In this document: one piece after another, positions 1,574 through 17,780 of the stretch
How positions within the stretch are numbered: the first letter of the stretch is position 1
Layout: each line of letters opens with the position of its first letter
NCBI GenBank assembly: GCA_964482715.1
Contig: CAYZYX010000005.1
Coordinates: forward strand, 1 to 60,429
DNA: 60,429 nucleotides
Reading direction: 5' to 3'
Source of the DNA: an uncultured Clostridia bacterium
GTDB lineage: Bacteria > Aerophobota > Aerophobia > Aerophobales > B3-G15
Made by a program: the position numbers and the translations under genes
The notes under the pieces: generated by a model
The model's input: only the letters and a program-made list of their open reading frames with translations
The model's database searches: none
Told to the model about the DNA's origin: nothing

Positions 1574-1600
1574 TAAACTTAGAATATATTCTTGACGCTA

Positions 1601-1641
1601 TACAGAGCAGACAGATTTAATCTGCCTGCTCTGTATTTTTT
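1601..1641 (+). terminator. Stem-loop with T tract after the SBP gene (attenuator or mRNA stabiliser)
   Basis: TACAGAGCAGACAGAT/ATCTGCCTGCTCTGTA near-perfect inverted repeat followed by TTTTTT. Confidence 0.75.
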
Positions 1642-1673
1642 AAATTGTCTGGCTTGATTATAGGAAGTTCACA

Positions 1674-2558
1674 ATGAAGTATAAACCCAGTATAGTGGGC
1701 TGGCTGGCCGTAATCCCGTTGGCGATGAGTCTTATACTGGTTACTACTGTCCCTCTTTGCTACGTTTTTATATTGAGTTTCTACAGATATTACCTGCCGG
1801 AGAAAATACAGAGTTTTATCGGACTTCTCAATTATTTGGAAATTTTAAAAACACGTGAATTCTGGCATTCCTTTTCTGTGACTATTGTGTTTTGTGGATG
1901 TGTAATATTTTTTCATTTAGCCCTGGGCTTAAGTATCGCGCTCTTGCTCAATCAACGATTTCCGGGGTTGGAAAAAGTCAGAAGATTTTTTCGTGCGCTT
2001 ATTATGACTCCCTGGCTTATAGCTGGAGCAGTTGCCGCCTCCATATGGCTTGTATTATTTCATCCCTTTGGTGCTGTTAACAGCATGTTAATGAGTAGCC
2101 ACTTATTAAAAAGACCTCTGATCTGGCTGGGGGATTATCGATTAGCTCTCCCATCGGTAATAGGTCTCTACGTATGGCGAAACCTGCCGTTTTTCATAAT
2201 TATTCTTCTGGCGACAATAGAAAGCATACCCCAGGAACTTTATGAAGCAGCCAGTATTGATGGGGCGAGTAAAATAAACCAGTTTTTATATATTACATTC
2301 CCCTACGTTGTTCCAACTCTTTTGACGTTGGGTATGATAGATACAATTTGGTCTTTTATTCAATTCGATTTAATCTTCCTTACAACAGGAGGAGGACCTG
2401 CTGGTGCTACTCAAAATTTACCTTTACTGGTATACTACACCGCTTTTGAAGATTTAACATTTGGGAAAGCCGCAGCACAGGGCATATTAACTTTTTTATT
2501 TACGCTCACCTTTGCCATATTTTACATTAAACTTTCTGTTCAAAGAGAAAGTGAATGA
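1674..2558 (+). CDS. Carbohydrate ABC permease (MalF-like)
   Basis: Multiple TM segments; EAA loop ELYEAASIDGAS. Confidence 0.92.
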   Translation: MKYKPSIVGWLAVIPLAMSLILVTTVPLCYVFILSFYRYYLPEKIQSFIGLLNYLEILKTREFWHSFSVTIVFCGCVIFFHLALGLSIALLLNQRFPGLEKVRRFFRALIMTPWLIAGAVAASIWLVLFHPFGAVNSMLMSSHLLKRPLIWLGDYRLALPSVIGLYVWRNLPFFIIILLATIESIPQELYEAASIDGASKINQFLYITFPYVVPTLLTLGMIDTIWSFIQFDLIFLTTGGGPAGATQNLPLLVYYTAFEDLTFGKAAAQGILTFLFTLTFAIFYIKLSVQRESE

Positions 2559-3403
2559 GAGGGTTGAGTAAAAACTCGATGATAAATATTAAGAAATATG
2601 TGTGGCTTACTGCATGTATTGTAGTAATTACGATTATACTTCTACCGATCTTTTGGATGTGTTCAATTGCTATAAGGGAATCAGGAGAGGTTTTTACTAT
2701 TCCTCCTCATTGGATTCCAGAAAAAATCACTTTGGTTGCTTTTAAAAGAGTATTAAACGACCCCGTATTTGCTCAGGCTGTGGTAAATAGTGTATTTGTT
2801 TCGCTTTCTGTGGCTTTAATCTCGGTATTCCTGTCAGCTATAGCAGGGTATGGACTTTCTCGATTTAAATTTAAGGGTAAAAATACATTTATTGTTTACA
2901 TGCTCTCCACACAGATGATACCCCCTGTTCTTTTAGTTCTTCCCTATTACCTTATTTTACGAAAGACGGGAATCTACGACACTTACGCTGGTCTCATAAT
3001 GACTTATCTCACGTTTACTTTACCTTTTTGTGCACTCATCCTTAGAGGTTTTTTCGCTAATATACCGGTGGATTTAGACGAGGCTGCGTTAATTGATGGG
3101 TGCTCCCGATTGGGAGCCTTTTTCAGAATAATTTTGCCGTTATCTTTACCAGGAGTAATAGCTACCACTTTGTTTAGTTTCTTGGTTGCATGGAACCAGT
3201 ATCTATTTGCGCTTGTACTTACTTCGTCTGCTAATCGACGGATGCTTACTGTTCTCATTGGAGCCAAGTTGGGTCAATATAATATATTCTGGAATGACCT
3301 TATGGCTATAGATGTGATTGTTTGTTTTCCTTTAATTGCTGGCTTTTTCTTGTTACAAAAATATTTTGTAAGGGGAATTACTGCTGGGGCTATAAAAATA
3401 TAA
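2555..3403 (+). CDS. Carbohydrate ABC permease (MalG-like)
   Basis: EAA loop DLDEAALIDGCS; AWNQYL motif; 4-bp overlap with the upstream permease; start could be ATG 2579. Confidence 0.92.
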   Translation: MRGLSKNSMINIKKYVWLTACIVVITIILLPIFWMCSIAIRESGEVFTIPPHWIPEKITLVAFKRVLNDPVFAQAVVNSVFVSLSVALISVFLSAIAGYGLSRFKFKGKNTFIVYMLSTQMIPPVLLVLPYYLILRKTGIYDTYAGLIMTYLTFTLPFCALILRGFFANIPVDLDEAALIDGCSRLGAFFRIILPLSLPGVIATTLFSFLVAWNQYLFALVLTSSANRRMLTVLIGAKLGQYNIFWNDLMAIDVIVCFPLIAGFFLLQKYFVRGITAGAIKI

Positions 3404-3417
3404 TTAAGGAGAAAATG

Positions 3418-4608
3418 ATGGAAAGCCTTGCTAACCTGAAAAATATAAGATTTTATTTGCCTACAAGAGTTATTTTTGGAGAAGAAACTGTAAATGAAAT
3501 TGGCCAGGAGGCAATTCGGCTTGGAAAGAAAGCTTTGTTGGTAACCGGGAGAGAATCAATGAGAAAGCTGGGCATTACCTCCAGAGTAGAGGGTTTGCTC
3601 ATAGATTCAGGAGTCAAAGTTGTTATTTATGAAAAGGTAGAACCTGAGCCAAGTATTCAAACAGTAAATGAAGGAGGGATGCTGGCAAGATCGGAAAATT
3701 GTGATCTAATTATTGGACTGGGTGGGGGTAGTGTGCTCGATGCTTCAAAGGGGATTGCTGTTATAACCACACAGGAAGGCTCGATAACAGAAGCTATCGA
3801 GAGTAAAGACAAAAACCAGTTTTTTGCGAAAAGAAAAATACTACCGGTCCTCGCTATTCCAACCACATCAGGAACAGGAAGTGAAGTAACCCCCTTTGCT
3901 TTATTTACTGATAAGAAAGAGAGAAGAAAAAAACCATTAGGTCATCCGGTGCTGTACCCCAAATGTGCCATAATTGATCCTGATCTAATGATGGGGATGT
4001 CTCCCAAACTTGCTGCCATAACCGGTATAGATGCACTTGGCCATGCGGTCGAAGCCTATATTTCGCGAAATGCTAATTTTTTATCAGATATGTTTGCCAA
4101 AGAAGCAATACACCTGATTTCTGAAAATCTTCTTCGAGCTATAAGAGATAGAGGTGACCGAGAGGCTCAGAAAAATATGGCTCTGGCCAGTACGCTGGCT
4201 GGAATAGCAAATGCCCAAGCTGGTACAGTAGCAGGTCATGCTATGGCAGTTGCTCTTGGAGGATATTTGGGTATTTCTCATGGAATAGCTGTAGGCTTAT
4301 TTTTACCCTTCGTATTGGATCTCAATAAATCAGTATGTCCGGATAAAATAGCTCAGGTTACGAAAATGTTTATAAAGGATACACAGGAAATTTCCATAAA
4401 TGAACGGATTAAAAAATGTGTAGAGATTTTTCAAACTTTTGTTAGAGATAGCGGGTTACCCACTCACTTAGAAATGAAAATTGACGAAGACCAGATTATG
4501 AGGATTGCAAAGGATGCTTTCACCAAACCGGCTATGAGTTATAATCCCGCTGAATTAAAATTAAGTGACGTAGTAGCTGTAATTAAAAATGTATTCTCTA
4601 AAGCATGA
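3418..4608 (+). CDS. Iron-containing (family III) alcohol dehydrogenase
   Basis: GLGGGSVLD, PTTSGTGSEVT, DALGHAVE and SHG motifs; SD AAGGAG at 3406-3411 favours ATG 3415/3418 over the track start at 3322. Confidence 0.9.
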   Translation: MESLANLKNIRFYLPTRVIFGEETVNEIGQEAIRLGKKALLVTGRESMRKLGITSRVEGLLIDSGVKVVIYEKVEPEPSIQTVNEGGMLARSENCDLIIGLGGGSVLDASKGIAVITTQEGSITEAIESKDKNQFFAKRKILPVLAIPTTSGTGSEVTPFALFTDKKERRKKPLGHPVLYPKCAIIDPDLMMGMSPKLAAITGIDALGHAVEAYISRNANFLSDMFAKEAIHLISENLLRAIRDRGDREAQKNMALASTLAGIANAQAGTVAGHAMAVALGGYLGISHGIAVGLFLPFVLDLNKSVCPDKIAQVTKMFIKDTQEISINERIKKCVEIFQTFVRDSGLPTHLEMKIDEDQIMRIAKDAFTKPAMSYNPAELKLSDVVAVIKNVFSKA

Positions 4609-4681
4609 AAAGCACAGGTTAACGATCCCATTTTGTTTTTGTTTTCAGAATATCTCCCCTTTTATGCTTTTTATCTATTAG

Positions 4682-4805
4682 TTAAATAGCACTTGCCAGT
4701 CTTTTACTAATCTGGATGGCACATTCATCTTTCATCCTGATGACTTAAAACTTCAGGTATAAATCCCGCTCCAATATCCTGGATTTTGTGAGGTCCCGAA
4801 GAGGG
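4682..4805 (-). pseudogene. cysK: Degraded cysteine synthase (CysK-family) fragment
   Basis: Minus strand reads PSSGPHKIQDIGAGFIPEVL (CysK motif GPHKIQGIGAGFIP), then after a frameshift/deletion IRMKDECAIQISKRLA, matching the next CysK helix; no start and no full ORF. Confidence 0.8.
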
Positions 4806-5124
4806 AAATCTCATGAATCTTTTAGAAGTTTTTATCATGAGAAAAGCTGTGGCCCAGCCAAGGGAGAAGACAAATGTCAAAAGATAGCCATTTCCAGAGA
4901 TTTTTTTGAAATCGAAATTTATCCCGGTGTACTAAATAATAAATGAGCCATCTTGTGAAGGAACTATTACAAAAAATTGCTAATAAAATTTTCGTTGATT
5001 TTACTGTGATACTTATATTTTGTTGACATTTATTATTGTAACATTATTTTCTTTACCTTTTATATAGGGAAATTTCCGAAATGACTTATTCAATTTTTGT
5101 TAATTAAATATAGATTTTAGAAGT

Positions 5125-5152
5125 TTGACTTGAAGCTCTTTCAAGTTATAAT
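5125..5152 (+). promoter_or_regulatory. Sigma70-type promoter of the FadR/transketolase operon
   Basis: TTGACT (5125-5130), 16 bp, TATAAT (5147-5152). Confidence 0.7.
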
Positions 5153-5164
5153 TTACCAGTTAGA

Positions 5165-5175
5165 TGGTCTTACCA
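5165..5175. promoter_or_regulatory. Probable FadR-subfamily operator
   Basis: TGGT-CTT-ACCA palindrome just downstream of the -10; matches the TGGT-N3-ACCA pattern of PdhR/LldR-type regulators. Confidence 0.65.
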
Positions 5176-5202
5176 GTATACCAAAAGAAGACTTAATCTG
5201 AA

Positions 5203-5898
5203 ATGTTTGAAAAAGTCCAAACTAAAAAAGTTTATATGGAGATAGTGGAGCAAATACAAAAGTTGATTAAAGAAGGAAAATTGAAGCCTGGGGACAAACT
5301 CCCTCCTGAACGCATCCTGGCGAAAAAACTCGGGGTATCCCGCCCTCCATTAAGAGAAGCTTTGTCAGCACTGGAGATACTTGGGATAATTGAATGTAGA
5401 GGGGGAAGAGGCAATATAATTAAAAACAGTTTTGATCCTGATGTTCTTAAACAGCGATTCAAGGAATTGGAGAGTGAACAGAGCCCGTTTGAGCTTTTGG
5501 AAGCAAGAAAGGTAGTGGAAATGCAGATTGCCGGTCTTGCAGCAAAAAAAGCACTAAAGGAAGATATAGTCGCTATTGAAGAATCCTTAAGAAAGATGAA
5601 AGATTCTCTTTCCAATATCACCAAAATCTTGGAATACGATAGAGAGTTTCATGTTAATGTAGCCAGAGCTGCTCACAACAGTGTACTTTTTTCCATGATG
5701 AATTATTTAGCCGATGGCTTAAAAGAAAAACTATGGGTAAACCTGAAAGAGAAATGTTACAATCTTCCAGGACGTCCCGAGAAGTATCTTCGGGAACATA
5801 TTGAGATCTTTAATGCCATAAAGAACAAGGATAGTAAAGGCGCCTCCAGGAAAATGTACACTCATCTGGCTGGTGTGGAAAAGGACTTACTCGGTTAG
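5203..5898 (+). CDS. GntR family, FadR subfamily transcriptional regulator
   Basis: wHTH LKPGDKLPPERILAKKLGVSRPPLREAL; FCD domain DREFH...AAHNSVL...EHIEIFNAI. Confidence 0.93.
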   Translation: MFEKVQTKKVYMEIVEQIQKLIKEGKLKPGDKLPPERILAKKLGVSRPPLREALSALEILGIIECRGGRGNIIKNSFDPDVLKQRFKELESEQSPFELLEARKVVEMQIAGLAAKKALKEDIVAIEESLRKMKDSLSNITKILEYDREFHVNVARAAHNSVLFSMMNYLADGLKEKLWVNLKEKCYNLPGRPEKYLREHIEIFNAIKNKDSKGASRKMYTHLAGVEKDLLG

Positions 5899-6031
5899 TT
5901 ATGAGAAATTGGATTTTTATATAGAGAATTTATGATTCTTGTCTGATTTTCTTAAGCTATTTGTCTGTTAGCCGGTTTAAGTAGAGTAAAATTGTCAGCT
6001 AACTAATTAAATTTATTGTGAGAGGTGGACC

Positions 6032-6871
6032 GTGAGTTACCATTCTGAAAGTCTAATCGGTGGTTTGCACAAAATTGCAAGACAGGTACGGGTTGATGTA
6101 ATTGAAATGATTCATAGAAGAGAAGCTGGACATCCAGGTGGTTCTCTATCCATTGTAGAAATTCTGGTTGCTCTTTATTTTCATCATTTAAGAATTAAGC
6201 CCGAAGATCCTTCTTGGCCAGAGCGAGATCGATTCATTTTAAGTAAAGGTCATGGATGTTCAGCTCTTTATGCTACACTGGCAAGAAGAGGGTTTTTCCC
6301 TCCAGAAAAGCTTGAAACATGGGGTCATATAGGTTCGTTTTTACAGGGACATCCTGATAGATTGAAAACTCCAGGAGTGGAGATGAGTTCGGGATTTCTG
6401 GGGCACGGGCTTGCCATTGGTGTTGGTTTGGCTTTAGCTGCTCGGATTAGAGGTTTTTCCTATCAAACATATGTTTTATTGGGTGATGGTGAATGCCAGG
6501 CGGGAATTGTATGGGAAGGGGCAATGGCTGCAGGAAAATACAAATTATCAAATTTAACTGTTATTGTTGATTACAATGATGTTCAACTGGATGGTATTGT
6601 ACATGAAATTATGCCTCTTGAACCTTTCATTGATAAATGGTGCTCATTTAATTTTGAGGTGCTACAAATCAACGGCCATAACATGAGAGAAATTCTTGAT
6701 TCTCTGGACATGGCCCTCGAGATTCATGAGAAGCCCGTAGTTATAATAGCTCGTACCACCAAAGGAAAGGGCGTCTCCTATATGGAGAATAAATCTATCT
6801 GGCATGGAAGAGCTCCAACTGAAGAAGAGTTGAAGATAGCAAAAACTGAACTTTTGAAGGAGGAAAATTGA
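6032..6871 (+). CDS. Transketolase, N-terminal (ThDP-binding) subunit
   Basis: GHPGGSLS, LSKGH, LQGHP, ThDP motif GDGE...N, WHG; GTG start. Confidence 0.92.
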   Translation: MSYHSESLIGGLHKIARQVRVDVIEMIHRREAGHPGGSLSIVEILVALYFHHLRIKPEDPSWPERDRFILSKGHGCSALYATLARRGFFPPEKLETWGHIGSFLQGHPDRLKTPGVEMSSGFLGHGLAIGVGLALAARIRGFSYQTYVLLGDGECQAGIVWEGAMAAGKYKLSNLTVIVDYNDVQLDGIVHEIMPLEPFIDKWCSFNFEVLQINGHNMREILDSLDMALEIHEKPVVIIARTTKGKGVSYMENKSIWHGRAPTEEELKIAKTELLKEEN

Positions 6872-7818
6872 TGCAGAAAGTTTCTATTCGAGAAGCTTTT
6901 GGAAAAACATTGGTTAAGATTGGAGCCCAAAATCCAGATGTTGTGGTATTAGTTGCAGATGTTTCCTCTTCACTTATGACAGATTATTTTGGAGAAAAGT
7001 TTCCCGATCGTTTTTTTAATCTGGGAATTCAGGAGGCTGGAATGGTTGATGTTGCGGTTGGTTTTGCACTTGCTGGGATGATTCCTTTCACAAATACATT
7101 TGCTGGTTTGTATCTTCGAACGGTTGAACAGATAAGAACCTGTGTCGCTTATGCCAGAACTAACGTTAAAATTATCGGGGGATACTGTGGATTATCGGAC
7201 TTCAAAGATGGACCAACTCATCATTCTATTGTAGATATTGCTGTTATGAGGGCTCTGCCCAATATGGTGGTTATAAGTCCCGCTGATGCTACAGAAGTCG
7301 AGAAGATTTTACCCCTTGTGGCAGAATACGATGGACCGTGTTATGTTCGTCTAAGCAGGGCAGATTTGCCTGTTGTTTTTGATGATAACCATCAGGTAGA
7401 GATTGGTAAAGGGATCGTCATCAAAGAGGGTGAAGATGTTGCTCTCATTGGTACCGGGGTTATGACCTGGCGCTGTCTTGAAGCGGCAAAAATCTTGTCA
7501 GGTGATGGCATAGATTGTACAGTTATAAATATCCATACCCTTAAGCCATTAGATGAGTCTCTCATAATAGAGACTGCAGAGAAAACGGGAGCTATAGTTA
7601 CCGCTGAGGAACATTCAATCATAGGTGGATTGGGAAGTGCGGTAGCAGAAGTTCTCGCAAATAATTGCCCTGTTGTTGTTGAACGAGTTGGAATTGCTGA
7701 TAGATTTACCGAAACTTCCTTAGATTTTGAATCTTTGCTTGATCATTATGGTATGAGTGTTCAGGATATAGTTGGAGCGGCTAAACGAGCTGTTCATAGA
7801 AAACAAAAAGTTAAATGA
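6868..7818 (+). CDS. Transketolase, C-terminal (pyrimidine-binding) subunit
   Basis: NLGIQE, DGPTHHS, YVRLSR, TLKPLD, EEHSIIGGLGSAV. Confidence 0.92.
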   Translation: MMQKVSIREAFGKTLVKIGAQNPDVVVLVADVSSSLMTDYFGEKFPDRFFNLGIQEAGMVDVAVGFALAGMIPFTNTFAGLYLRTVEQIRTCVAYARTNVKIIGGYCGLSDFKDGPTHHSIVDIAVMRALPNMVVISPADATEVEKILPLVAEYDGPCYVRLSRADLPVVFDDNHQVEIGKGIVIKEGEDVALIGTGVMTWRCLEAAKILSGDGIDCTVINIHTLKPLDESLIIETAEKTGAIVTAEEHSIIGGLGSAVAEVLANNCPVVVERVGIADRFTETSLDFESLLDHYGMSVQDIVGAAKRAVHRKQKVK

Positions 7819-7834
7819 GAAAGAAGGAGTCTAT

Positions 7835-8908
7835 ATGGCAATAAAAGAAAAATTAGGGTTTGGCATAATCGGGGCAGGTGCAATTGCTCCGTTCCATGCT
7901 GAAGCAATTAATGATTTACCTGAAGCGACCCTTGTTGGGGTTTGCGATTCTATAGAGGAAAGAGCAAGATCTCTTGCTGAAAAGTTCAATGCAAAAATGT
8001 GGTGCACTGACTATAGAGAACTTCTGGAAAGGAAAGACATAGATGTCATCAATCTGTGCTTACCCCCTTCTTTAAATGCGAAAATTACTCAGGAAGCTGC
8101 CAAAGTGCATAAGAACGTAATTGTGGAAAAGCCAATGGCTTTAAATGTTGAGCAGGCTGATAGTATGATATCCTCCTGTAAGGAGGCAAAAGTTAAATTG
8201 GGGGTTATTTTTCCTTGTCGTTTTAGCGAGGATACTAAAAGAGTGAAAAACATAATTGAAGAAGGAAGACTGGGAAAGTTATTCATGGGTAACGCTTTTA
8301 CCAACTGGTTCCGAACGAAAGAATACTATGAAAATGCTTCCTGGAGAAAGACTTGGAGTGGTCAGGGCGGAGGAGTTTTAATGAACCAGGCTATACACTC
8401 TATAGATCTTTTACAATGGTATATGGGGCCTGTGAAAAGTATATATGGATTAATGGATACATTTGTACATGATATTGAGGTAGAAGATAGTGCTGTTGCT
8501 ATTTTGCAGTTTGAAAATGGAGCGGTAGGAGTGATTCAGGGGACTACTGCAGCTTTTCCTGGTTTTCCAAGAAAAATAGAAATTTTTGGAGAAAAAGGAA
8601 GCATCGTCTTAAAAGTGCATTTTCTGGAACTTTTAGCTATTATAGGTTCTGAAATGGAAATTAAGGGGGATTTAAGACAAGATTATGTAAATAAAAGACC
8701 CGGAGATTGTTCTTCAGGACCCGTTCATTTAACTTCTGAATATCACAGACTTCAAATAGAAGACTTTATAAACGCTGTAAAGGAAGATAGAAAACCATTT
8801 GTTGATGGAGAAGAAGGAAAAAAATCTCTGGAGATAATTCAGGCAATATACCGGTCAGCCAGAACAGGTAAGACAGTTAGGTTGCCTTTAAAAAGTAATA
8901 GTAGCTAA
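7835..8908 (+). CDS. Gfo/Idh/MocA family NAD(P)-dependent oxidoreductase
   Basis: GIIGAGAIA Rossmann motif, VEKPMA, GGGVLMNQAIHSID; SD AAGGAG supports ATG 7835. Confidence 0.92.
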   Translation: MAIKEKLGFGIIGAGAIAPFHAEAINDLPEATLVGVCDSIEERARSLAEKFNAKMWCTDYRELLERKDIDVINLCLPPSLNAKITQEAAKVHKNVIVEKPMALNVEQADSMISSCKEAKVKLGVIFPCRFSEDTKRVKNIIEEGRLGKLFMGNAFTNWFRTKEYYENASWRKTWSGQGGGVLMNQAIHSIDLLQWYMGPVKSIYGLMDTFVHDIEVEDSAVAILQFENGAVGVIQGTTAAFPGFPRKIEIFGEKGSIVLKVHFLELLAIIGSEMEIKGDLRQDYVNKRPGDCSSGPVHLTSEYHRLQIEDFINAVKEDRKPFVDGEEGKKSLEIIQAIYRSARTGKTVRLPLKSNSS

Positions 8909-8922
8909 TTACAATTTATTTT

Positions 8923-8960
8923 AAAAGGTTTCACTTTGATTTGATAAGTGAGATCCTTTT
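8923..8960 (+). terminator. Intra-operon stem-loop
   Basis: AAAAGGTTTCACTT...AAGTGAGATCCTTTT imperfect inverted repeat ending in T4, between the oxidoreductase and the aminotransferase. Confidence 0.45.
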
Positions 8961-8994
8961 GGGCTTATATCTAAATTGTTAGGAGAGGAGAACC

Positions 8995-10362
8995 ATGAAA
9001 TACGATCTTACACCCAGAGATGTAGGAAAAACTGAAACTCCTTACAGGAGAATCAAGACAAAATTACCGGTCCCTGAATCCTTACCTGTTTTAGAAAAAT
9101 TGGCCCGGTATGAACCCCGTCAGTTTCGTTCAATACCGCCTGTAGGTGTAGTTTGGGATAGAGCTGAAGGATTTCAAATTTATGACAGGTATGGTAACAA
9201 GTGGTTAGATTGGACTTCAGGCGTTCTTGTTGCTTCTGCTGGTCACGCAAGAGAAGAAATTAAAAAGGCAATAGTGGATCAACTCAATTCCTCCCTGCTT
9301 TTCAACTATGTTTTTCCCAATGAAATAAGACTGAAGCTTATAGAAAAACTAATTCAGATAACACCTGACCCTCTTAATATGGTTATTTTGCTAAGTACTG
9401 GAGCAGAAGCTGTTGAACGTGCAATAAAACTGGCACGAATTTGGGGTAAAAAAGTTGGTGGTAAAAAAAAGATAGGAATTGTTTCCTTTGAGGGAGCTTT
9501 TCACGGGAGAACTCTTGGTTCTCAAATGATCGGAGGAATACCTTCCCTAAAAGAATGGATTGTAAATCTTGATCCTGATATGCATCAGGTTCCTTACCCT
9601 GGTGACTTCAGGTGTAAAAATAAGGACTTTTCACTTTTTGAGGAGACACTGGCCAATAAGGGTTTGAAAAGTGAAAATATTGCCGCAGTAATTACCGAGA
9701 CCTTTCAAGGAGGAGGGGCCTCCTTTATGCCTAAGGAATATGCTCAAAAATTGGCTGAATGGTGTAAGCGGGAAAACGTTCTGTTAATTATGGATGAAGT
9801 TCAGGCTGGTTTCGGGAGAACAGGTAAGATGTTTGGTTTTGAACACTACGAAATTGTTCCAGACCTCATCTGTTGTGCAAAAGCAACCACCTCATCTTTA
9901 CCTCTTTCCTGTGTGATTGGCAGATCCGAGGTTATGGATGTGGATGACCCTGTCACGAGTACACATTCAGGTAATCCTCTATGTGTGGCAGCAGCCCTTG
10001 CTAATATCAATCTTATTGAAAAAGAAAATCTTGTTGAAAATGCCGCCAGAGTCGGAGAATTTTTCTCTGCAGAACTTAATAAATTAAAAGAGGAATATGG
10101 AGATATAATTGGTACAGTTTGTGGAAAAGGGCTTGTCTATGGTTTGCATATCGTTAAGAAAGGAACGATTGAACCCGATGGGGAGCTTGCTTATAAAATA
10201 GTTCGAAGATGTGTAGAAAAAGGATTGATGCTCTTCTCACCGGTTGGCTTTGGTGGAGCAACTATAAAGATATGTCCTCCTTTAATTATAACAAAAGAAG
10301 CAGTAAGTGATGGGATAACAGCTTTGAGAGAAGCGATAGAAGAAAGTCTGGAGCATCGTTGA
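8995..10362 (+). CDS. Class III (omega/GabT-like) PLP aminotransferase
   Basis: GNKWLDW, TGAEAVE, AFHGRT, IMDEVQAGFGRTG, PLP lysine in CAKA, THSGNP. Confidence 0.92.
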   Translation: MKYDLTPRDVGKTETPYRRIKTKLPVPESLPVLEKLARYEPRQFRSIPPVGVVWDRAEGFQIYDRYGNKWLDWTSGVLVASAGHAREEIKKAIVDQLNSSLLFNYVFPNEIRLKLIEKLIQITPDPLNMVILLSTGAEAVERAIKLARIWGKKVGGKKKIGIVSFEGAFHGRTLGSQMIGGIPSLKEWIVNLDPDMHQVPYPGDFRCKNKDFSLFEETLANKGLKSENIAAVITETFQGGGASFMPKEYAQKLAEWCKRENVLLIMDEVQAGFGRTGKMFGFEHYEIVPDLICCAKATTSSLPLSCVIGRSEVMDVDDPVTSTHSGNPLCVAAALANINLIEKENLVENAARVGEFFSAELNKLKEEYGDIIGTVCGKGLVYGLHIVKKGTIEPDGELAYKIVRRCVEKGLMLFSPVGFGGATIKICPPLIITKEAVSDGITALREAIEESLEHR

Positions 10363-10393
10363 TAGCCATATATAAGCGAAAGGAGAGAACAAA

Positions 10394-11797
10394 ATGAGGG
10401 TTGGTTTGCTTTCCTTTTCCGATGGACGGGAAAGGGTGCACAGAGATTTAATTCCGGAGATAAAAAAGGCCCAGGATGTTATAATTGATTTTTTAAAGAG
10501 ACAGAAAGGCATAGAAGTCGTTGCAGGATCAAGTATAGTATACACACCCGATTTGGCTCGAAGAGAAGCAAGGAGGTTAGTTGCCCAGAATATAGATGCT
10601 CTTGTTTTTAATATCCCGGTATTTGCCTTTCCAAATTTTGCCTTGATTGCAGCCAGAATATGTAATATCTCACCCTTGATTTACTCTCTTCCTAACCCGA
10701 GACTCCCGGGGTTAGGTGGAATGCTGGCAGCTGGAGGTGGTCTCAGAGAAGCAGGAATAAATTGCGAGAAATTATGGGGCGATCTTGGCGACCCATTGAT
10801 TCAGAAAAAATTTATGGCTTACTTGAGGGCTCAAACTGCTGCAAGAAAACTTCAAGGCCAGGTCTATGGGCTCATTGGAGGTCGGAGTATCGGAATGGTT
10901 ACCGGGACCATTGATCCTTCCCAGTGGATGGAAATATTCGGGGTGGATGTGGAACATGTGGACCAGCTTGAAATAATTCGTCTTGCAGAAAAGATCCCTG
11001 AGGTAGAGGTTAATGAAGGATTCAAATGGTTGAACAGTCATGTTGGAAAAATAGAGTATGCTGGTGCTTTAAGTGAGGAGAGTTTAAAGTACCAGCTGAG
11101 ATGTTACCTTGCTATACAGGAAATAGTTAAACAGCACCAGCTCGATTTTCTGGGAGTAAAGTGTCACTACGAACTAAGTGAGTATTACGTTACCCAATGT
11201 TTAAGTTGTGCAATTTGCTCTGATCCTTATGACTGGAGAGGACCAAAGCCTCCCCAGGTCTTTGCCTGTGAAGCCGATTCAGATGGAGCTTTAACTATGC
11301 AAATCCTTAAACTCCTATCGGGAAAACCCACAGCTTTTCTTGATCTCAGACATTATGATGAAGCAAATGGCCTTTATGTTCTTTGTAACTGTGGTGCTTT
11401 AGCTACGTGGTTTGCTGCTCAGGCTGAGGATCCAAATGAAAACCTAAAGAGGGTGACCCTTTGCCCCATTATACCAAAGTATGCTGGAAAAGGAGCTCAT
11501 GTTCGTTTTCTGTGTAGTAGTGGTGAGGTTACGTTCGCAAGACTTATGCGCTCAAGCGGTCGTTATCAGATGGTGATATTTAAAGGTGAATTTGTAGAAG
11601 TTCCACTCGCCAGGCTTCAGGAAACTTGCCCTCAATGGCCTCATGCTTACGCAAAAATAAATATTGGTCCACAGGAACTTTTTGATATTTATGATTCCAA
11701 TCACTGTCACGCTGTTTATGGGGACTATTTAGAGGAAATTGTTAAATTTTGCAAAATTCTGAATATTGATGTTCAGCTTATTGAAAGAAGAAGATAG
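10394..11797 (+). CDS. L-fucose/L-arabinose isomerase-fold protein
   Basis: N-terminal SDGR; candidate metal ligands CEAD (Glu), LD (Asp) and NHCHAVYG (His) positioned as in FucI. Confidence 0.8.
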   Translation: MRVGLLSFSDGRERVHRDLIPEIKKAQDVIIDFLKRQKGIEVVAGSSIVYTPDLARREARRLVAQNIDALVFNIPVFAFPNFALIAARICNISPLIYSLPNPRLPGLGGMLAAGGGLREAGINCEKLWGDLGDPLIQKKFMAYLRAQTAARKLQGQVYGLIGGRSIGMVTGTIDPSQWMEIFGVDVEHVDQLEIIRLAEKIPEVEVNEGFKWLNSHVGKIEYAGALSEESLKYQLRCYLAIQEIVKQHQLDFLGVKCHYELSEYYVTQCLSCAICSDPYDWRGPKPPQVFACEADSDGALTMQILKLLSGKPTAFLDLRHYDEANGLYVLCNCGALATWFAAQAEDPNENLKRVTLCPIIPKYAGKGAHVRFLCSSGEVTFARLMRSSGRYQMVIFKGEFVEVPLARLQETCPQWPHAYAKINIGPQELFDIYDSNHCHAVYGDYLEEIVKFCKILNIDVQLIERRR

Positions 11798-11802
11798 TCA
11801 AA

Positions 11803-13113
11803 ATGAATTCTTTGTATCAGAAGGTAATAGAGTATATTGATCGTCAAAAAACAGATCTGGTGGATTTTCTTTCAAAATTGATTGGTTTTCCATCGGTGAA
11901 TCCAGGGATGCCGGGTCAAGGGAAGGAGTTGGAATTGCAACAGTGGCTAAGCGAAAAACTAAGACAATTTGGATTTGATGAGGTTGACTGCTGGTCTGCT
12001 GACCCTAAAATTGAAAGGCCTAATATTGTAGCCACCATAAAAGGATCAGGTGGAGGCAAGTCTCTTATACTGAACGGTCATTGTGATGTTGTACCGGTAA
12101 ATGAAAAGGAACTGGAAAAATGGGATACTGACCCTTGGAGTGCTACTATTAAGAATGGCAGACTTTTCGGTAGAGGGGCAAGTGATATGAAAGGTGGTCT
12201 TACTGCCATGATATGGGCAGCTAAGGCAATAATTGATAATGAAATAGATTTAAAGGGAGACCTCTTTGTTGAATCTGTGGTAGGAGAGGAATCAGGAGAA
12301 GGAGAAACCGTTGGAACTAACTCTACATTGCAACGTGGCTACAAAGCACCTTTTGCCATAATAGGTGAGCCAACCAGCTGTGAGATTAAAGTAAGGACAC
12401 CCGGTGTCTTTTTCTTTGAGCTTGAAATACAGGGAAAAGAAACTCATATTTGTAACAGGAATCAGGTTATTTTTCCTCAGAAACATGGTGTAAGTTCTGG
12501 AAGTAAAATAGGAGTGGATGCGATAACCAGTTCCATACAGTTTATGCAGCTTTTTCAGAAAATAGAGTTGCAGTGGAATCAGAGATGGCAAGACGAGCTT
12601 CTTCCGGAAGAAGAAGGGGTAGGATCTTTTACCATCGGCCCCTGTTTTATTGAAGGAGGTACTTACGGTGCAGCCGTAGTTCCAGGATCTTGTAGAATTG
12701 TTTATAATGTGCGTTACCCCTGGTGGTTGAAGGATGAAGATCTCTGGCAAGAGCTGAAGCGGTATGTAGATGCTCTGGCATCAACAGACGATTGGTTCAG
12801 AAAAAATCCTCCCAAATTTAAGGTACCAGTTATAAGACGCTGGCAACCAATGATTGAGACTCCAGTTGATCATCCTGGGGCGAGAACACTGGCTGCGGCT
12901 TTTGAAAAATTAACCGGGAATAAAGCACGATTTTCCAGTTTTAAGGGATTAACTGATGCTACTTTCTTGACCCGCGGAGGTGTACCTACGGTTTTATTTG
13001 GCCCGGGCAGCCATGACTGTGGTATTCATGGACCTAATGAATACATATCTATCGATGAACTTATACTGTGTGCAAAAATATACGCTGTTATGATATTAGA
13101 CTGGTGCAGATAA
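11803..13113 (+). CDS. ArgE/DapE-family M20A deacylase/peptidase
   Basis: LNGHCDVVP, GRGASDMKGG, VGEES, IGEPT, HGPNE metal-binding motifs. Confidence 0.9.
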   Translation: MNSLYQKVIEYIDRQKTDLVDFLSKLIGFPSVNPGMPGQGKELELQQWLSEKLRQFGFDEVDCWSADPKIERPNIVATIKGSGGGKSLILNGHCDVVPVNEKELEKWDTDPWSATIKNGRLFGRGASDMKGGLTAMIWAAKAIIDNEIDLKGDLFVESVVGEESGEGETVGTNSTLQRGYKAPFAIIGEPTSCEIKVRTPGVFFFELEIQGKETHICNRNQVIFPQKHGVSSGSKIGVDAITSSIQFMQLFQKIELQWNQRWQDELLPEEEGVGSFTIGPCFIEGGTYGAAVVPGSCRIVYNVRYPWWLKDEDLWQELKRYVDALASTDDWFRKNPPKFKVPVIRRWQPMIETPVDHPGARTLAAAFEKLTGNKARFSSFKGLTDATFLTRGGVPTVLFGPGSHDCGIHGPNEYISIDELILCAKIYAVMILDWCR

Positions 13114-13182
13114 TTTACCTGTTTGTAAAGAAAGAACAAAAATAGATCAACCAATTGCCCAGTATATGCAAGGAGTTTATTG

Positions 13183-14322
13183 ATGAATCGACGTGAGATG
13201 GTAATTGCCACCATTGATCACCAGAAACCAGAAGTAATTCCCCAACAGGTTACTTTTTTTGATATTAACGCTTTAAAAAAGTTTGTGCCAACTTTTAGTA
13301 CTGACTGGAGAGAGGATGCGGTTAAGAAAATGGAGTTTCTCGATAGTGCTTTTGTAGAAGTAAGTAATTGTTTGCATCGTTCAAAGTATTTGCAGAAGGT
13401 GGATATTTTAGAAAGAGTAGCTTTTTATCATGCTGTTGCACCTTCTGGCGGACTTTATGTAGATGTTATAAAAGAAGATGATGAATCTGTGATAATCCAA
13501 TTTGAAACTGGAGGTAAATGGGAGATCCATAAGGACCCTTTCTGGCGTCATTTTATTGATTATCCTGTAAAAGATGAAAAAGATCTTGAGAAATTGCATA
13601 TGCCTGATCCTAACGATCCCAAAAGATACACAGGTGTTGAGGAAACAATTGCATACTTTAAGAAAAAAGGTTTTTTCACCCAGGTTGAGATTAATGGCTT
13701 TTTTTCGGATGTATGGTATCGGTACCACAATATGCCCGATTTTTTGGTAAACATGATAGAGAAAGAGGAATTTATAAAGGAACTTTTGAACAAAGTGGGA
13801 TCATTTAATCTTGCTGTTGCTGAGAATTATCTTAAAAGAGGTGTAGATAGCGTTATGTTTTGTGAAGACCTTGGATCAAACAAAAGTATGTTGATTTCTC
13901 CTGACCTATACAAGAAGTTTTTTTATCCATGGCATAAAAAATTAGCTGACCTTTGTCATCAATATGGGGCTTATCTAAATATGCACAGTCACGGTAATAT
14001 AAATGAGATCGTACCATTTATAGTGGAAGCAGGAGTTGATATATTAAATCCAGTAGGTCCTTCTGACAATATGGATCTCAAAAAACTGAAGAAAAATTAT
14101 GGTGATAAGATTACTCTAATGGGTGGATTGAGCAAATTCATTGGTAACATGAGCAGAGAAGAACTCGAGTCCCATATTAAAAATGTGATAGAAACCGGGT
14201 CTTCTGGTGGCGGTTTTATTCTCATGTCAGAAGGTGGAATTCCCTCCAGTATGAACCATGAGGATTTCAAGTTTTACTGTGATGTGAGCAAGAAATATAG
14301 AAAAAAATGCGGTAAAAGATGA
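13183..14322 (+). CDS. Uroporphyrinogen decarboxylase/MtaA-CmuA-fold protein
   Basis: FCEDLGS, LISPDLYKKFFYP, MHSHG, GVDILNP, ITLMGG; TTG 13180 is an alternative start. Confidence 0.85.
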   Translation: MNRREMVIATIDHQKPEVIPQQVTFFDINALKKFVPTFSTDWREDAVKKMEFLDSAFVEVSNCLHRSKYLQKVDILERVAFYHAVAPSGGLYVDVIKEDDESVIIQFETGGKWEIHKDPFWRHFIDYPVKDEKDLEKLHMPDPNDPKRYTGVEETIAYFKKKGFFTQVEINGFFSDVWYRYHNMPDFLVNMIEKEEFIKELLNKVGSFNLAVAENYLKRGVDSVMFCEDLGSNKSMLISPDLYKKFFYPWHKKLADLCHQYGAYLNMHSHGNINEIVPFIVEAGVDILNPVGPSDNMDLKKLKKNYGDKITLMGGLSKFIGNMSREELESHIKNVIETGSSGGGFILMSEGGIPSSMNHEDFKFYCDVSKKYRKKCGKR

Positions 14323-14446
14323 GAATTTGTAGGGGATAAAATGGACCGGAAAGGAGGTGTGTAAAAAAAATTATCAGGTCCATTAAAAAAGGAGGTTTTA
14401 CACGATTTTACCGAACAAATATCAAGTATTAAGGGGGAAAAGATCA

Positions 14447-15892
14447 ATGGGTAGAAGTTTTTCATACAAGGTTTTTTTAGGTTTGGGGTTAATGTTGATT
14501 TTGTTGATGATTATTGGTCAAACAGTTTTTGCAGCAGGGGAAAAACCCTGGGAAAAAATCGAATGGAATAAGCCAGTACCTGCTCCTGAAAGGTTATCTG
14601 CCGATGAATACATTCTTCCAGAAGGGTGGCAACAGGCAGTGAAAGGTGTTGAGAGGATACTTCACTTCAATGCCGGAAGTATGGAACACGATCCAGGTAC
14701 TTTGGCTAATTTTAAACTTTTTGAGAAATTAACCGGAATAAAGGTCAATTATGTTGAGGTATCCGATCAAGTTCTCCTGCAAAAGACGATATCTGCTCTT
14801 GTAAGTGGTGATCCTAATGTTACTTCCATGTGTGTTTCAGAGCCAGCCTATTCCATGCAACATCTAATAGCTGCAAATTGGCTTGAAAAATGGGATGTAG
14901 TATGGAGTCCTGAAGTTCAGAAAATTTATCCACCAGGATTAGTACAGTTGCTTAAAGGACCAGATGGCCACTTTTATGGAACGGTTGATACTCAAAAATC
15001 AGCCATTATGTACGCAAGAGTTTCTTGGCTTAAAGCAGCAGGTGTGGATATTCCTGATACCTGGCAAGATGTAATTATTGCTGCTAAGAAGTGCCGGGAG
15101 TGGGCTTTACAAAATCTTGGTCCAACTTACTGGGGTATTGCCTTTCCAGGTGATCACTATCTACTTCAGCATTTTCAGTGTGGGGTTTACTCTCAGGGTG
15201 GGAGGTTAATGCAAGATGGTAAGATTAATTTATTGACTCCCGAATTCAAAAATACATGGAAGATGTTTGTGGATTTCATCAAGGAAGGTTCAGCTCCTGA
15301 GGCAATTCTTGGATGGACGTGGAATGATTACCAGCAGGCTTTTGCAATGGGAAAAGTAGCCATATGTGATGAGGGACTCAATACTAACATGGTATTTTTT
15401 AAAGATCCAAATAGATCCCCTGGGCTTCAGAAAGATGTGTTTGGTAATCCTGTGAAGGGTGGGGACTGGATTGCTTTTCCACCACCAAAGTGGAGTGACG
15501 AAATGCCGGAAAGTTACAGAGGAGCAGCTCCAACTAATTTTTCGACATTTGTTATCAATAGATTTGCTCCTGACAATGCTAAAGCAGCAGCAATGTTACT
15601 GGGTGAGGTTAGAATGAGTAAGCAAGGTGGAGTGAATGAGCTTTTGATAGAGGGTAATTCTCCGTTTTTGCCTACGGTGTTTGAAGATCCTGAGGTCCTG
15701 AAAAAGGTAGACTATGTTGATGTACGAAAGATATGTCTGCAGAATGCTGTGCTGGAAGTTTTTCCTCCCGGTGCTCAGCATATGATGGACATTTTGCTTG
15801 AATATTTTGGAAAAGCAGTCACTGGAGAGATGGATACCATGGAAGCTCTGGAGCAGGCCCAAAAGGAACTGGATGAGCTACTGTACTACTAA
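14447..15892 (+). CDS. Sugar ABC solute-binding protein with an N-terminal Trp/Pro-rich extension
   Basis: Signal peptide ending TVFA; DIPDTWQD and FAMGKVA family-1 SBP segments; precedes two permeases. Confidence 0.85.
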   Translation: MGRSFSYKVFLGLGLMLILLMIIGQTVFAAGEKPWEKIEWNKPVPAPERLSADEYILPEGWQQAVKGVERILHFNAGSMEHDPGTLANFKLFEKLTGIKVNYVEVSDQVLLQKTISALVSGDPNVTSMCVSEPAYSMQHLIAANWLEKWDVVWSPEVQKIYPPGLVQLLKGPDGHFYGTVDTQKSAIMYARVSWLKAAGVDIPDTWQDVIIAAKKCREWALQNLGPTYWGIAFPGDHYLLQHFQCGVYSQGGRLMQDGKINLLTPEFKNTWKMFVDFIKEGSAPEAILGWTWNDYQQAFAMGKVAICDEGLNTNMVFFKDPNRSPGLQKDVFGNPVKGGDWIAFPPPKWSDEMPESYRGAAPTNFSTFVINRFAPDNAKAAAMLLGEVRMSKQGGVNELLIEGNSPFLPTVFEDPEVLKKVDYVDVRKICLQNAVLEVFPPGAQHMMDILLEYFGKAVTGEMDTMEALEQAQKELDELLYY

Positions 15893-15944
15893 TCTGAAAC
15901 AGAGTTTTCTCGCAGTTAATTGAGTGATTTGAATGAAAAAGAAA

Positions 15945-15980
15945 AGTTGGCCCCGTGCGATTACAAATACGGGGCCAACT
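15945..15980 (+). terminator. Perfect 12-bp GC-rich stem-loop after the second SBP gene
   Basis: AGTTGGCCCCGT/ACGGGGCCAACT; no clean U tract, so more likely a stabiliser or processing hairpin. Confidence 0.65.
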
Positions 15981-16020
15981 CCGCCTTCGTTTTCAAAATA
16001 TTCAGAAGGAGGGGTACTTC

Positions 16021-16893
16021 ATGAAAATCTCTAACAGTAAATTCGGTTTGTTTCTTTCTCTACCAGGAATAGTACTTTTGACACTTTTGATAATTGGTCC
16101 TTTGATTTTTCTTGTTTACACAAGCTTTCTTCGATATGATAATATACGTCCGGTGGTATTTTGTGGCCTTAAGAACTATAAGTATCTTTTCCGTCAACGA
16201 GTTTTCTGGTTGAGTTTCAAAAATACTCTGGTTTTCTGTGGAGGAACCACACTTTTAACTTTTGTCTTAAGTCTGCTTCTTGCACACTGTTTATCGCGAA
16301 TTACCAGAGGATCGAGTATTTTCAGGTCTTTTGCAATGTTTCCCTGGGCAGTTCCACTTGTTGTTTCGGGTTTCATGTGGAAACAGATGTTTAATCCCTC
16401 TTTTGGTGTTATCAATGATGTTTTGTTAAGGACAGGAATAATAAAAAATCCTCTTGATATATTCGGTAATCCCACTCTGGCCATGATAGGGGTTATTCTT
16501 GCCGATTCATGGACACGTATACCTTTTATGACGATAATTATCCTTGCAGGGCTGGAGAGTATTTCACCCACCATATATGAGGCAGCCAAAACAGATGGAG
16601 CAGATGTATTTCAGACGTTTGTTCATATATCCCTGCCTCTTAACAGAAAAGCCATGCTAACAGGTCTTCTTATTACCAGTATATTTTCTTTTCGCACAAT
16701 TGATGCAATTTTTTCCCTGACTTTTGGTGGTCCAGCAAAGGCTACATATGTTTTTGGGTTTTACATTCTTGATCTTATCTATAGATATTTCAATTTTGGT
16801 GTTGCAGCTTCACTGAGTATATTGATGATTATTTTCTTGATAGGAATTGGAAGTATTTTTGTTTACAACATCCTTAAAGGTGGCAAATTATGA
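16021..16893 (+). CDS. Carbohydrate ABC permease (MalF-like)
   Basis: EAA loop TIYEAAKTDGA; SD AGGAGGGG supports ATG 16021 (the track start at 15955 lies inside the hairpin). Confidence 0.92.
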   Translation: MKISNSKFGLFLSLPGIVLLTLLIIGPLIFLVYTSFLRYDNIRPVVFCGLKNYKYLFRQRVFWLSFKNTLVFCGGTTLLTFVLSLLLAHCLSRITRGSSIFRSFAMFPWAVPLVVSGFMWKQMFNPSFGVINDVLLRTGIIKNPLDIFGNPTLAMIGVILADSWTRIPFMTIIILAGLESISPTIYEAAKTDGADVFQTFVHISLPLNRKAMLTGLLITSIFSFRTIDAIFSLTFGGPAKATYVFGFYILDLIYRYFNFGVAASLSILMIIFLIGIGSIFVYNILKGGKL

Positions 16894-17741: not shown

Positions 17742-17780
17742 GGATAGTATAAAGAGAGCTTCAATATTGGAATAGTAAAA

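Follow-up and report, generated by a model that had tools for sequence, protein, structure and literature searches.

Here we examined a run of genes in a stretch of 60,429 nucleotides (hereafter the window; positions 1 to 60,429 of the forward strand of contig CAYZYX010000005.1, assembly GCA_964482715.1) from an uncultured Clostridia bacterium that GTDB places in the Aerophobota. Gene calls were made from a listing of open reading frames (ORFs) combined with Pfam and NCBIfam scans of the window proteins. Between positions 5203 and 22477 the plus strand carries an unbroken run of 15 genes, about 17 kb long, in which a split transketolase with an altered phosphate pocket lies together with an isomerase, an epimerase, an importer and a set of genes that may remove an amine from a sugar acid. 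The features of this run are as follows:

5125–5175, plus strand: promoter-like site TTGACT-16-TATAAT (5125–5152), then a palindrome of the GntR/FadR type, TGGTCTTACCA (5165–5175); putative operator of the operon
5203–5898, plus strand: GntR-family regulator with an FCD effector domain, FadR subfamily (PF00392, PF07729)
6032–6871, plus strand: TktN, N-terminal subunit of a split transketolase, binding thiamine diphosphate (ThDP) (PF00456, 172 bits; GDG...DYN motif)
6868–7818, plus strand: TktC, C-terminal subunit of the split transketolase (Pyr and C domains; PF02779, PF02780), Tyr-type
7835–8908, plus strand (ORF opens at 7772): Gfo/Idh/MocA oxidoreductase, probably a sugar 3-keto reductase/dehydrogenase (Pfam)
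8995–10362, plus strand: class III aminotransferase of the 'Lys425' type (PF00202, 318 bits)
10394–11797, plus strand: short FucI-fold aldose-ketose isomerase of 467 amino acids with all three FucI Pfam domains, anchor gene of the core described below
11803–13113, plus strand: M20 deacylase of the ArgE/DapE family (PF01546; TIGR01910, 278 bits against a cut-off of 217.6)
13180–14322, plus strand: UroD/MtaA-fold protein 1 (PF01208, 86 bits)
14447–17741, plus strand: CUT1-type ABC importer, with binding protein (14447–15892) and permeases (15955–16893 and 16890–17741) (Pfam)
17781–18917, plus strand: UroD/MtaA-fold protein 2 (MtaA-type models at 54–65 bits, far below cut-off)
18933–19739, plus strand: IolO-like ketose/keto-uronate 3-epimerase, a xylose-isomerase-like TIM barrel (NF041099)
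19758–21083, plus strand: FeADH2, a divergent 441-amino-acid protein of the iron-type alcohol dehydrogenase (Fe-ADH) family, candidate reductase for the aldehyde-acid coming from the transketolase
21089–22477, plus strand: homologue of the LarA family of nickel-pincer-dependent 2-hydroxy-acid racemases/epimerases (PF09861, PF21113)

An earlier note on this DNA had described a module of seven genes, from the regulator to the ArgE-like gene (5203–13113). All seven are present at those coordinates except for the start of the Gfo/Idh/MocA gene, which we moved from 7772 to a likely ATG at 7835 behind GAAGGAG, in agreement with the 358-amino-acid orthologue in a JGI metagenome contig (L001). The end of the module at 13113 could not be kept, the seven genes being the front half of a unit that continues to 22477 with a UroD-like gene, the CUT1 ABC importer, a second UroD-like gene, the IolO-like epimerase, the divergent Fe-ADH and the LarA-like gene. 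L001 keeps the order from transketolase to LarA, each protein being 68–86% identical, and about 20 independent metagenome runs from hydrothermal vents or marine sediments carry the stretch nearly identically, so that it is not an assembly artefact. The gene run is thus one conserved unit, more than would be expected by chance. Pfam and NCBIfam scans found no kinase domain in any ORF of positions 1–23000.

The transketolase was examined by aligning TktC to the split transketolase of C. hydrogenoformans (6yaj) and to human transketolase, with residues given in E. coli numbering. The ThDP, Pyr and C domains of a canonical transketolase (EC 2.2.1.1), its GDGE...DYN motif and the equivalents of Asp469 and His473 (Asp114 and His118) are all present, and TktC retains the equivalents of R358 (R8), S385 (S35), D469, H473 and R520. 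The phosphate-binding H461 is replaced by Tyr106 and E468 by Lys113, and TktC accordingly lacks the full canonical phosphate-binding set (R358, S385, H461, R520) and the E468–R520 salt bridge. In the E. coli enzyme E468 forms this salt bridge with R520, and the H461S variant has higher activity on non-phosphorylated aldehydes (PMC3657141). The two replacements are shared by the closest relatives of TktC: all 120 of its closest homologues (63–99% identity), which come from Omnitrophota, Atribacterota and Chloroflexota among others, have Tyr or Phe at the H461 position and Lys at the E468 position, within the motif G-G-[YF]-x-G-x-S-[DN]-[FYW]-K-D-G-x-T-H-[HY]. More distant transketolases that adjoin the isomerase in other loci (the sister clusters) also have Tyr, and over the subfamily as a whole the E468 position holds Lys or another residue. 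TktN is 74% identical to its counterpart in L001, 49–51% to the transketolases of clusters with a TRAP transporter and 41% to the enzyme of a sulfoquinovose cluster; TktC is 38% identical to the sulfoquinovose-cluster enzyme, and the two subunits taken together are 45–51% identical to the TRAP-cluster enzymes; identity to the C. hydrogenoformans transketolase is 47%. The host genome, a metagenome-assembled genome of 1.57 Mb that is 94.7% complete, encodes a separate transketolase of 647 amino acids with the canonical His (segment 'THNG...DGKTHQ'), and the split enzyme is therefore a dedicated second copy. As judged from these alignments, the Tyr-type split transketolases form a distinct subfamily, with a pocket that appears remodelled yet still cationic.

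Other members of this subfamily, 65–75% identical, stand in further contexts. Two loci (L117 and L118) have the order TktN, TktC, zinc-type alcohol dehydrogenase (Zn-ADH), with branched-chain-type ABC importers, E1 alpha/beta genes and an SDR, or AcnX, and in a third (L119), from a metagenome-assembled genome of Chloroflexota, the transketolase adjoins a class I/II aminotransferase and glycine cleavage genes, a canonical transketolase lying 5 kb away. None of the three loci has a kinase.

The company that the Tyr-type transketolase keeps was determined in 80 metagenome loci, retrieved by alignment to the isomerase family and screened with the window proteins, of which 22 carry a transketolase of this type. 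A FucI-like isomerase occurs in 19 of the 22 and an IolO-like epimerase in 18, so that isomerase, epimerase and Tyr-type transketolase make up a compact, widespread and recurring core. Further partners are a transporter of the ACS family of the MFS (D-galactonate transporter subfamily, 249 bits; 8/22), FeADH2, which stands after the transketolase (7/22), OtnI/Hyi (4/22; NF043033 at 380 bits against 325, hydroxypyruvate isomerase at 353 against 353), RpiB (4/22), a TRAP system (3/22) and GarR, the 2-hydroxy-3-oxopropionate (tartronate-semialdehyde) reductase (3/22; 489 bits against 397). An FGGY kinase was matched, weakly, in one locus and a PfkB kinase in none, leaving 21 of the 22 with neither. 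Two loci (L146 and L147) read ACS-type MFS transporter, isomerase, epimerase, TktN, TktC, FeADH2, another (L138) reads isomerase, epimerase, RpiB, TktN, TktC, OtnI/Hyi, GarR, and a fourth (L007) holds the FeADH2–LarA pair together with an FCD regulator.

Because anion transporters, enzymes of C3 and C4 acid sugars, LarA and the IolO-like enzyme accompany it, the core would handle a carboxylated sugar, and these partners suggest that the transketolase leaves a small aldehyde-acid that is later reduced or isomerised. Other pointers to a carboxylate, read from the window and the host genome, are the matches of the FCD regulator, LarA together with LarC, and the IolO-like epimerase, whose score for 5-keto-L-gluconate epimerase (NF041099) is 284.3 bits against a cut-off of 300, the next model being D-psicose 3-epimerase at 129. 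The LarA homologue reaches the cut-off of no characterised subgroup (LarA 264 bits against 460, malate racemase 241 against 500). A search for LarC, the nickel-insertion protein for the LarA cofactor, found it on contig C17 (481 bits). The isomerase shares the fold of L-fucose isomerase and does not belong to that group, its scores being far below the cut-offs (TIGR01089, 44 bits against 850; NF008220, 58 bits against 775) and its length 467 amino acids against roughly 590; it is 52% identical to its orthologues in TRAP clusters. When named genomes were searched with the isomerase by itself, no match was returned. FeADH2 scores at most 107 bits with any named Fe-ADH and is 51% identical to its orthologue in L007 and 25% to the Fe-ADH of the sulfoquinovose cluster.

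Outside the window and L001 the core occurs without the aminotransferase, the Gfo/Idh/MocA enzyme, the M20 enzyme, the UroD-fold genes or the CUT1 importer; the first three of these are a lineage-specific add-on to the core. Compared with E. coli GabT, the aminotransferase retains the Schiff-base lysine (Lys296) and the arginine of FHGRT (Arg172, GabT R141), has Lys425 in place of GabT Arg398 and lacks GabT Glu211, the other member of the canonical gating pair; it falls outside the GABA/ornithine type, and all equivalog models score below their cut-offs. Lys425 is invariant in 30 members of the family, which at 58–86% identity overall, and 58–67% in the phyla named here, extends through Planctomycetota, Acidobacteriota, Verrucomicrobiota and Omnitrophota to archaea (Thermoproteota, L016), and the two aminotransferase paralogues in the host genome retain Arg398. 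Full-text literature searches found no function described for the Lys425-type family. Of 83 loci of this aminotransferase, from named genomes of many phyla (L017–L096 included), 41 have a Gfo/Idh/MocA gene and six an M20 gene immediately after it in the same orientation. The 83 loci have no other window gene in common at stringent thresholds, so that this aminotransferase family is not a regular companion of the transketolase core. A CoaC-like flavoprotein gene stands upstream of the aminotransferase in five loci, and the Lys425-type aminotransferase with a Gfo protein of about 400 amino acids is a widespread two-gene module, usually devoid of any other conserved neighbour.

The best solved relatives of the window Gfo protein are the UDP-GlcNAcA 3-dehydrogenases of the WlbA type (3q2k and 3q2i, 185 and 169 bits), followed by glucuronide 3-dehydrogenase and DgpA. 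Work of Thoden and Holden is said to have shown that WlbA/WbpB acts in tandem with an aminotransferase to interconvert the 3-hydroxyl and 3-amino groups of an N-acetyl amino uronic acid. The M20 protein passes its family cut-off and none of those of the equivalog models (ArgE, DapE and others); a paralogue on contig C39, 58% identical, has as neighbours a further ABC importer and genes for the E1 alpha and beta subunits of a ThDP-dependent enzyme. The simplest reading of these genes is a portable module that, after N-deacylation, would take an amine to a ketone and on to an alcohol and so turn an amino sugar acid into a substrate of the core. A housekeeping role of the aminotransferase and the M20 enzyme as ArgD and ArgE was rejected: argC lies elsewhere in the genome, which also has two aminotransferase paralogues of the Arg398 type, whereas the window enzyme is of the Lys425 type, and both genes keep their place within a sugar operon of conserved order. 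The argC match (contig C11, 38762–39769; 440 bits) has one in-frame TAA, which may be mere overhang of the alignment at the gene end. Catabolism of rhizopines or inosamines, of Amadori compounds, of ectoine or of N-acetyltaurine was also considered, and none of these accounts for a core with transketolase, epimerase and LarA.

Taking these results together, we tentatively propose, as a reading that is plausible though not quite probable, that this operon under an FCD/GntR regulator serves the uptake and kinase-free breakdown of a modified sugar, with an N-acylated amino sugar acid as the likeliest candidate. The substrate would be taken up by the CUT1 ABC system; the M20 enzyme would remove the N-acyl group, the Lys425-type aminotransferase would convert the freed amine into a keto group and the WlbA-like Gfo enzyme would reduce this to a hydroxyl, three steps by which an amino sugar acid would become an ordinary uronate-like sugar. 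The short FucI-fold isomerase would then make the ketose form and the IolO-like enzyme would epimerise C3 to the D-threo configuration that transketolase requires. The Tyr-type split transketolase would move C1 and C2 to an acceptor such as glyceraldehyde-3-phosphate, giving xylulose-5-phosphate, so that carbon would enter the pentose phosphate pathway without expense of ATP, as in the sulfo-transketolase route; FeADH2 would reduce the aldehyde-acid that remains, or the LarA homologue would invert its stereochemistry. Among the candidate substrates, none of which we favour, are N-acetyl or diacetamido hexuronic acids and the N-acetyl-talosaminuronic acid of bacterial and archaeal envelopes. 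The general logic of the first suggestion of the earlier note (deacylation, transamination, isomerisation, delivery to transketolase) survives here, given the conserved gene order, the pairing of the aminotransferase with Gfo or M20 genes and the dedicated transketolase with its altered pocket. Its neutral amino-polyol or amino-deoxy sugar gives way to a carboxylated sugar, since the core recurs with TRAP or ACS-type transporters, GarR, OtnI/Hyi and LarA.

A number of points weigh against this proposal. What we observed are genes, their order, their conservation, substitutions in active sites and co-occurrence, from which all the enzymatic steps are deduced, and the co-transcription of 5203–22477, like autoregulation, is presumed. 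The evidence for an anion comes from orthologues that are only 45–52% identical, and the window operon itself has a CUT1 ABC importer, not a TRAP or ACS-type transporter, and is devoid of GarR, Hyi and RpiB. CUT1 importers usually carry neutral sugars. The partner Gfo in most of the other aminotransferase loci belongs to a different, divergent subfamily, that of about 400 amino acids, and Arg172 of the aminotransferase could merely bind 2-oxoglutarate. M20 enzymes of the ArgE/DapE type usually need a free alpha-carboxylate beside the amide, which most N-acetyl sugars do not have, and this need favours N-acyl amino-acid-like or conjugate substrates. The contexts of L117–L119 imply that the Tyr-type subfamily is broader than any one substrate and not tied to uronates, and the two UroD-fold proteins have no step in the scheme.

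The proposed route can be placed beside several characterised systems. In the biosynthesis of 2,3-diacetamido-2,3-dideoxy-uronic acid by WbpB/WlbA and WbpE/WlbC (with WbpD), a Gfo 3-dehydrogenase and an aminotransferase likewise work in tandem through a 3-keto sugar acid, and the amine is N-acetylated; the window enzymes would run catabolically, on a free sugar rather than a UDP-sugar, the aminotransferase is of class III (GabT-like) and not of the DegT/WbpE kind, an M20 deacylase replaces the acetyltransferase, and the resemblance to WlbA is modest (185 bits). The epimerase IolO of the inositol pathway of Thermotoga maritima (5-keto-L-gluconate to D-tagaturonate) and the classical hexuronate isomerase pathway (UxaC/UxuB/UxuA/KdgK/KdgA) resemble our scheme, in which a uronate would be isomerised and a TIM barrel would epimerise the keto-uronate at C3. 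The operon, however, contains no genes for UxaC, the UxuA/UxaA dehydratase, KdgK or an aldolase; the transketolase would replace the branch of dehydratase, kinase and aldolase, and the isomerase has the FucI fold and not that of UxaC. Compared by description, the apulose-4-phosphate transketolase AptA/AptB of D-apiose catabolism is also a dedicated split transketolase in the operon of an unusual sugar, but the apiose route has a kinase and a phosphorylated donor, and the window operon has no kinase.

A close parallel is the sulfo-transketolase route of Clostridium sp. MSTE9 and Faecalicatena, in which an isomerase (SqvD), a split transketolase (SqwGH), a second isomerase (SqwI) and a reductase (SqwF) act with no kinase (PMC11659671). 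The enzyme types are the same (FucI-superfamily isomerase, split transketolase, Fe-ADH-family reductase), carbon would likewise enter as xylulose-5-phosphate while an anionic C2–C4 remainder is reduced, and the sister clusters have an RpiB-like gene beside the transketolase just as SqwI stands beside SqwGH. This likeness to the published enzymes (PMC11659671), the fact that SftI is the best NCBIfam match of the isomerase and the ability of TRAP transporters to carry sulfonates speak for the second suggestion of the earlier note, a sulfosugar pathway in which the Fe-ADH or the aminotransferase converts sulfoacetaldehyde to isethionate or taurine. The isomerase, however, reaches 80 bits with the SftI model (NF048012) against a cut-off of 700, FeADH1 (encoded upstream of the operon) and FeADH2 reach 214 and 94 bits with the SarD model (NF050025) against 700, and the GH31 sulfoquinovosidase YihQ (NF007746) has no match in the 94.7%-complete host genome; GH31 genes, which the earlier note had rightly found missing from the window, are absent from that genome too. 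For comparison we used Cellulosilyticum sp. (genome G031), where one locus (L106; contig C11, 327000–346900) encodes YihQ (870 bits, cut-off 553), an SftI-like isomerase (370 bits), two transaldolase/Fsa-like proteins, an Fe-ADH, a split transketolase with an RpiB-like gene directly after it and a transporter; from this gene content it appears to be a complete bifurcated cluster for sulfoquinovose (sulfo-transketolase and sulfo-transaldolase) in the published layout. A true SftI was sought in the 31 genomes of the host phylum and in 401 genomes of the order Lachnospirales, and none scored above the cut-off, so that the 370-bit Cellulosilyticum match serves as the reference. In a second locus of the same Cellulosilyticum genome (L003), an orthologue of the window isomerase and a split transketolase occur together with RpiB, an IolO-like gene and a TRAP transporter, and the window proteins are closer to this locus than to L106 (isomerase 52% against 21%, TktC 46% against 38%, TktN 49% against 41%). 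The transketolase of L106 has Asp and Asn at the H461 and D469 positions, where the window enzyme has Tyr106 and Asp114. By these identities the window proteins seem to group with the core of the L003 type and not with the sulfoquinovose cluster; they are not orthologous to the latter, differ from it in the pocket and add a 3-epimerase, the LarA homologue, the aminotransferase, the M20 and Gfo enzymes and two UroD-fold proteins, and partners such as LarA, GarR and OtnI are enzymes of carboxylates, not of sulfonates. We therefore regard the sulfosugar pathway as largely refuted and scarcely credible.

The remaining explanations keep parts of the evidence and differ in the substrate. An uncharged N-acyl amino-deoxy sugar or amino-polyol (for example, a 3- or 4-acetamido-6-deoxyhexose or a 6-amino-6-deoxyhexose) could be deacylated, transaminated, reduced, isomerised, epimerised and cleaved by transketolase for the reason that its C6 cannot be phosphorylated. 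Such a sugar would suit the importer, whose binding protein is remotely similar to trehalose/maltose-binding proteins, as well as FucI-fold enzymes, which classically use 6-deoxy-L-galactose; polyol-type Zn-ADH genes beside close transketolase homologues suggest neutral ketose donors, a Tyr or Phe in place of the phosphate-pocket His would fit an uncharged tail too, and the host has a second cluster of aminotransferase, Gfo and isomerase, with a kinase, on contig C10. We nevertheless hold it unlikely, as Lys113 adds to the two arginines retained in the anion pocket, carboxylates are indicated by the regulator, by the LarA homologue and the IolO-like enzyme and by the transporters and enzymes of the sister clusters, and an M20 enzyme of the ArgE/DapE kind is no typical sugar N-deacetylase. 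The M20 enzyme would be better accommodated if the substrate were a sugar acid linked by an amide to an amino acid, of the kind present in the wall polymers of bacteria and archaea (glycuronoyl-amino acids): the ArgE/DapE/CPG2 type cleaves amides of acyl-amino acids with a free carboxylate, TIGR01910 is matched above its cut-off, the sugar acid would pass to the core, which in many genomes occurs with neither aminotransferase nor M20, and the aminotransferase, which is similar to those of GABA and ornithine and retains the FHGRT arginine, would, with the Gfo enzyme, take the omega-amino acid released. Against such a conjugate, which we find fairly improbable, the tight pairing of aminotransferase and Gfo across phyla fits one substrate going from amine to ketone to alcohol better than a side branch for an amino acid, and no peptidase or amino-acid catabolic genes follow. 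It is quite improbable, finally, that the split enzyme is an ordinary pentose-phosphate transketolase that boosts downstream flux on a substrate phosphorylated by a kinase encoded elsewhere. That role has been proposed for the transketolase in the ribose/D-arabinose operon of Thermotoga, where FucI-like genes and a split transketolase occur with a kinase (PMC3750489), and it agrees with the retained catalytic residues and both phosphate-pocket arginines and with a genome that is only 94.7% complete; yet a separate canonical transketolase exists in the genome, the changes from His to Tyr or Phe and from Glu to Lys extend through the subfamily, and 21 of 22 related loci have neither an FGGY nor a PfkB kinase.

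Returning to the breakdown of an N-acylated amino sugar acid, we also considered a bolder generalisation that we regard as doubtful: the split transketolases of the Tyr/Phe type would be an undescribed subfamily that cleaves non-phosphorylated keto sugar acids and would form, with the isomerase and the IolO-like 3-epimerase, a widespread ATP-free 'urono-transketolase' route in uncultured anaerobes. The remainder would leave as tartronate semialdehyde, glyoxylate or tetronate, and in the window the aminotransferase, Gfo and M20 genes would be a front end for N-acylated amino uronic acids, for example the diacetamido-uronic or talosaminuronic acids found in the envelopes of archaea and bacteria. 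In full-text literature searches no description was found of a route by which uronates or other sugar acids are broken down through transketolase. Kinase-free catabolism through transketolase is known from the sulfo-transketolase route; a non-orthologous transketolase of the Tyr type and a front end that removes an amine would be new. If the proposal is true, breakdown driven by transketolase and free of kinases would not be peculiar to sulfoquinovose and would offer a general way to use sugars that cannot be phosphorylated at C6. Three enzyme families currently lacking a function would then be defined, namely a transketolase subfamily recognisable by two pocket residues, the Lys425-type aminotransferase of many phyla and archaea, and the short FucI-fold isomerase. 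It would also show how a member of a candidate phylum of 31 species makes a living in hydrothermal sediments with a small genome, perhaps by using amino uronic acids from cell envelopes. Engineering of transketolases for biocatalysis has targeted these very pocket positions, and the natural Tyr/Lys pocket is of interest in that field.

The regulator belongs to the FadR subfamily (FCD) of GntR proteins, which is all that the description of the module as FadR-controlled can mean: FadR models score 41 bits and its best NCBIfam matches, NanR, LldR, UxuR, PdhR and ExuR, all of them carboxylate sensors, score 100–126 bits, in every case below cut-off. It is 70% identical to the regulators of three loci (L004–L006) where only the isomerase and the epimerase are common, and the regulator shared by the window and L004 suggests a common effector at the isomerase/epimerase step. 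L004, a metagenome contig (102–16701), carries an ABC importer, an IolO-like epimerase, an isomerase, two further TIM-barrel genes, a creatinase-like M24 peptidase, an L-threonate-dehydrogenase-like gene, an SDR, a glycyl radical enzyme with its activase, a Zn-ADH and a transketolase. Ahead of the window regulator, TTGACT-16-TATAAT is the best promoter match in 4500–23000 (11 of 12 positions), and the palindrome TGGTCTTACCA occurs twice in the window against 0.77 expected, which is weak by itself. The total counts of the promoter scan (4500–23000) and of the terminator scan did not exceed those of shuffled sequences. A promoter and operator at 5125–5175 is thus an assignment in which neither feature is statistically strong singly.

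The binding protein of the CUT1 importer, 86% identical in L001, has a trehalose/maltose-binding protein as its closest solved relative (57 bits). UroD-fold protein 1 has no solved relative by sequence and UroD-fold protein 2 has paralogues 44–48% identical on contigs C18 and C33; full-text literature searches found no described role of UroD-fold proteins in sugar clusters. These proteins may have a role in methyl transfer, given the corrinoid proteins encoded elsewhere in the genome. The corrinoid-binding proteins are small (211 and 234 amino acids, on contigs C44 and C38, respectively), and the UroD/MtaA-fold proteins are expanded to about nine (contigs C1, C2, C7, C18, C33 and C49), mostly beside CUT1 ABC importers, of which the host genome has about 17 systems.

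The host phylum is represented by only 31 species genomes, all within one order. Other clusters in the host genome show a specialisation in unusual sugar derivatives: on contig C10 (L107, 9365–17119) a DeoR regulator, a class III aminotransferase of the Arg398 type, a Gfo/Idh/MocA gene, an FGGY kinase, a HAD protein and a remote FucI-like protein; on contig C39 (L108, 5482–13090) ABC permeases, M20, an SDR, a PF04199 cyclase, ThDP-dependent E1 alpha/beta and a PfkB kinase; and on contig C1 a LacI regulator, an ABC importer, UroD, a FucI-like protein, an aldehyde:ferredoxin oxidoreductase and a further UroD. Within the window, positions 260–4608 hold a separate unit 600 bp upstream of the regulator, with no second copy of the operator palindrome ahead of it, which comprises a CUT1 ABC importer and the conventional Fe-ADH, FeADH1 (real start at about 3418). 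FeADH1 is 33% identical to the reductase of the sulfoquinovose cluster and scores 296 bits with the choline dehydrogenase model.

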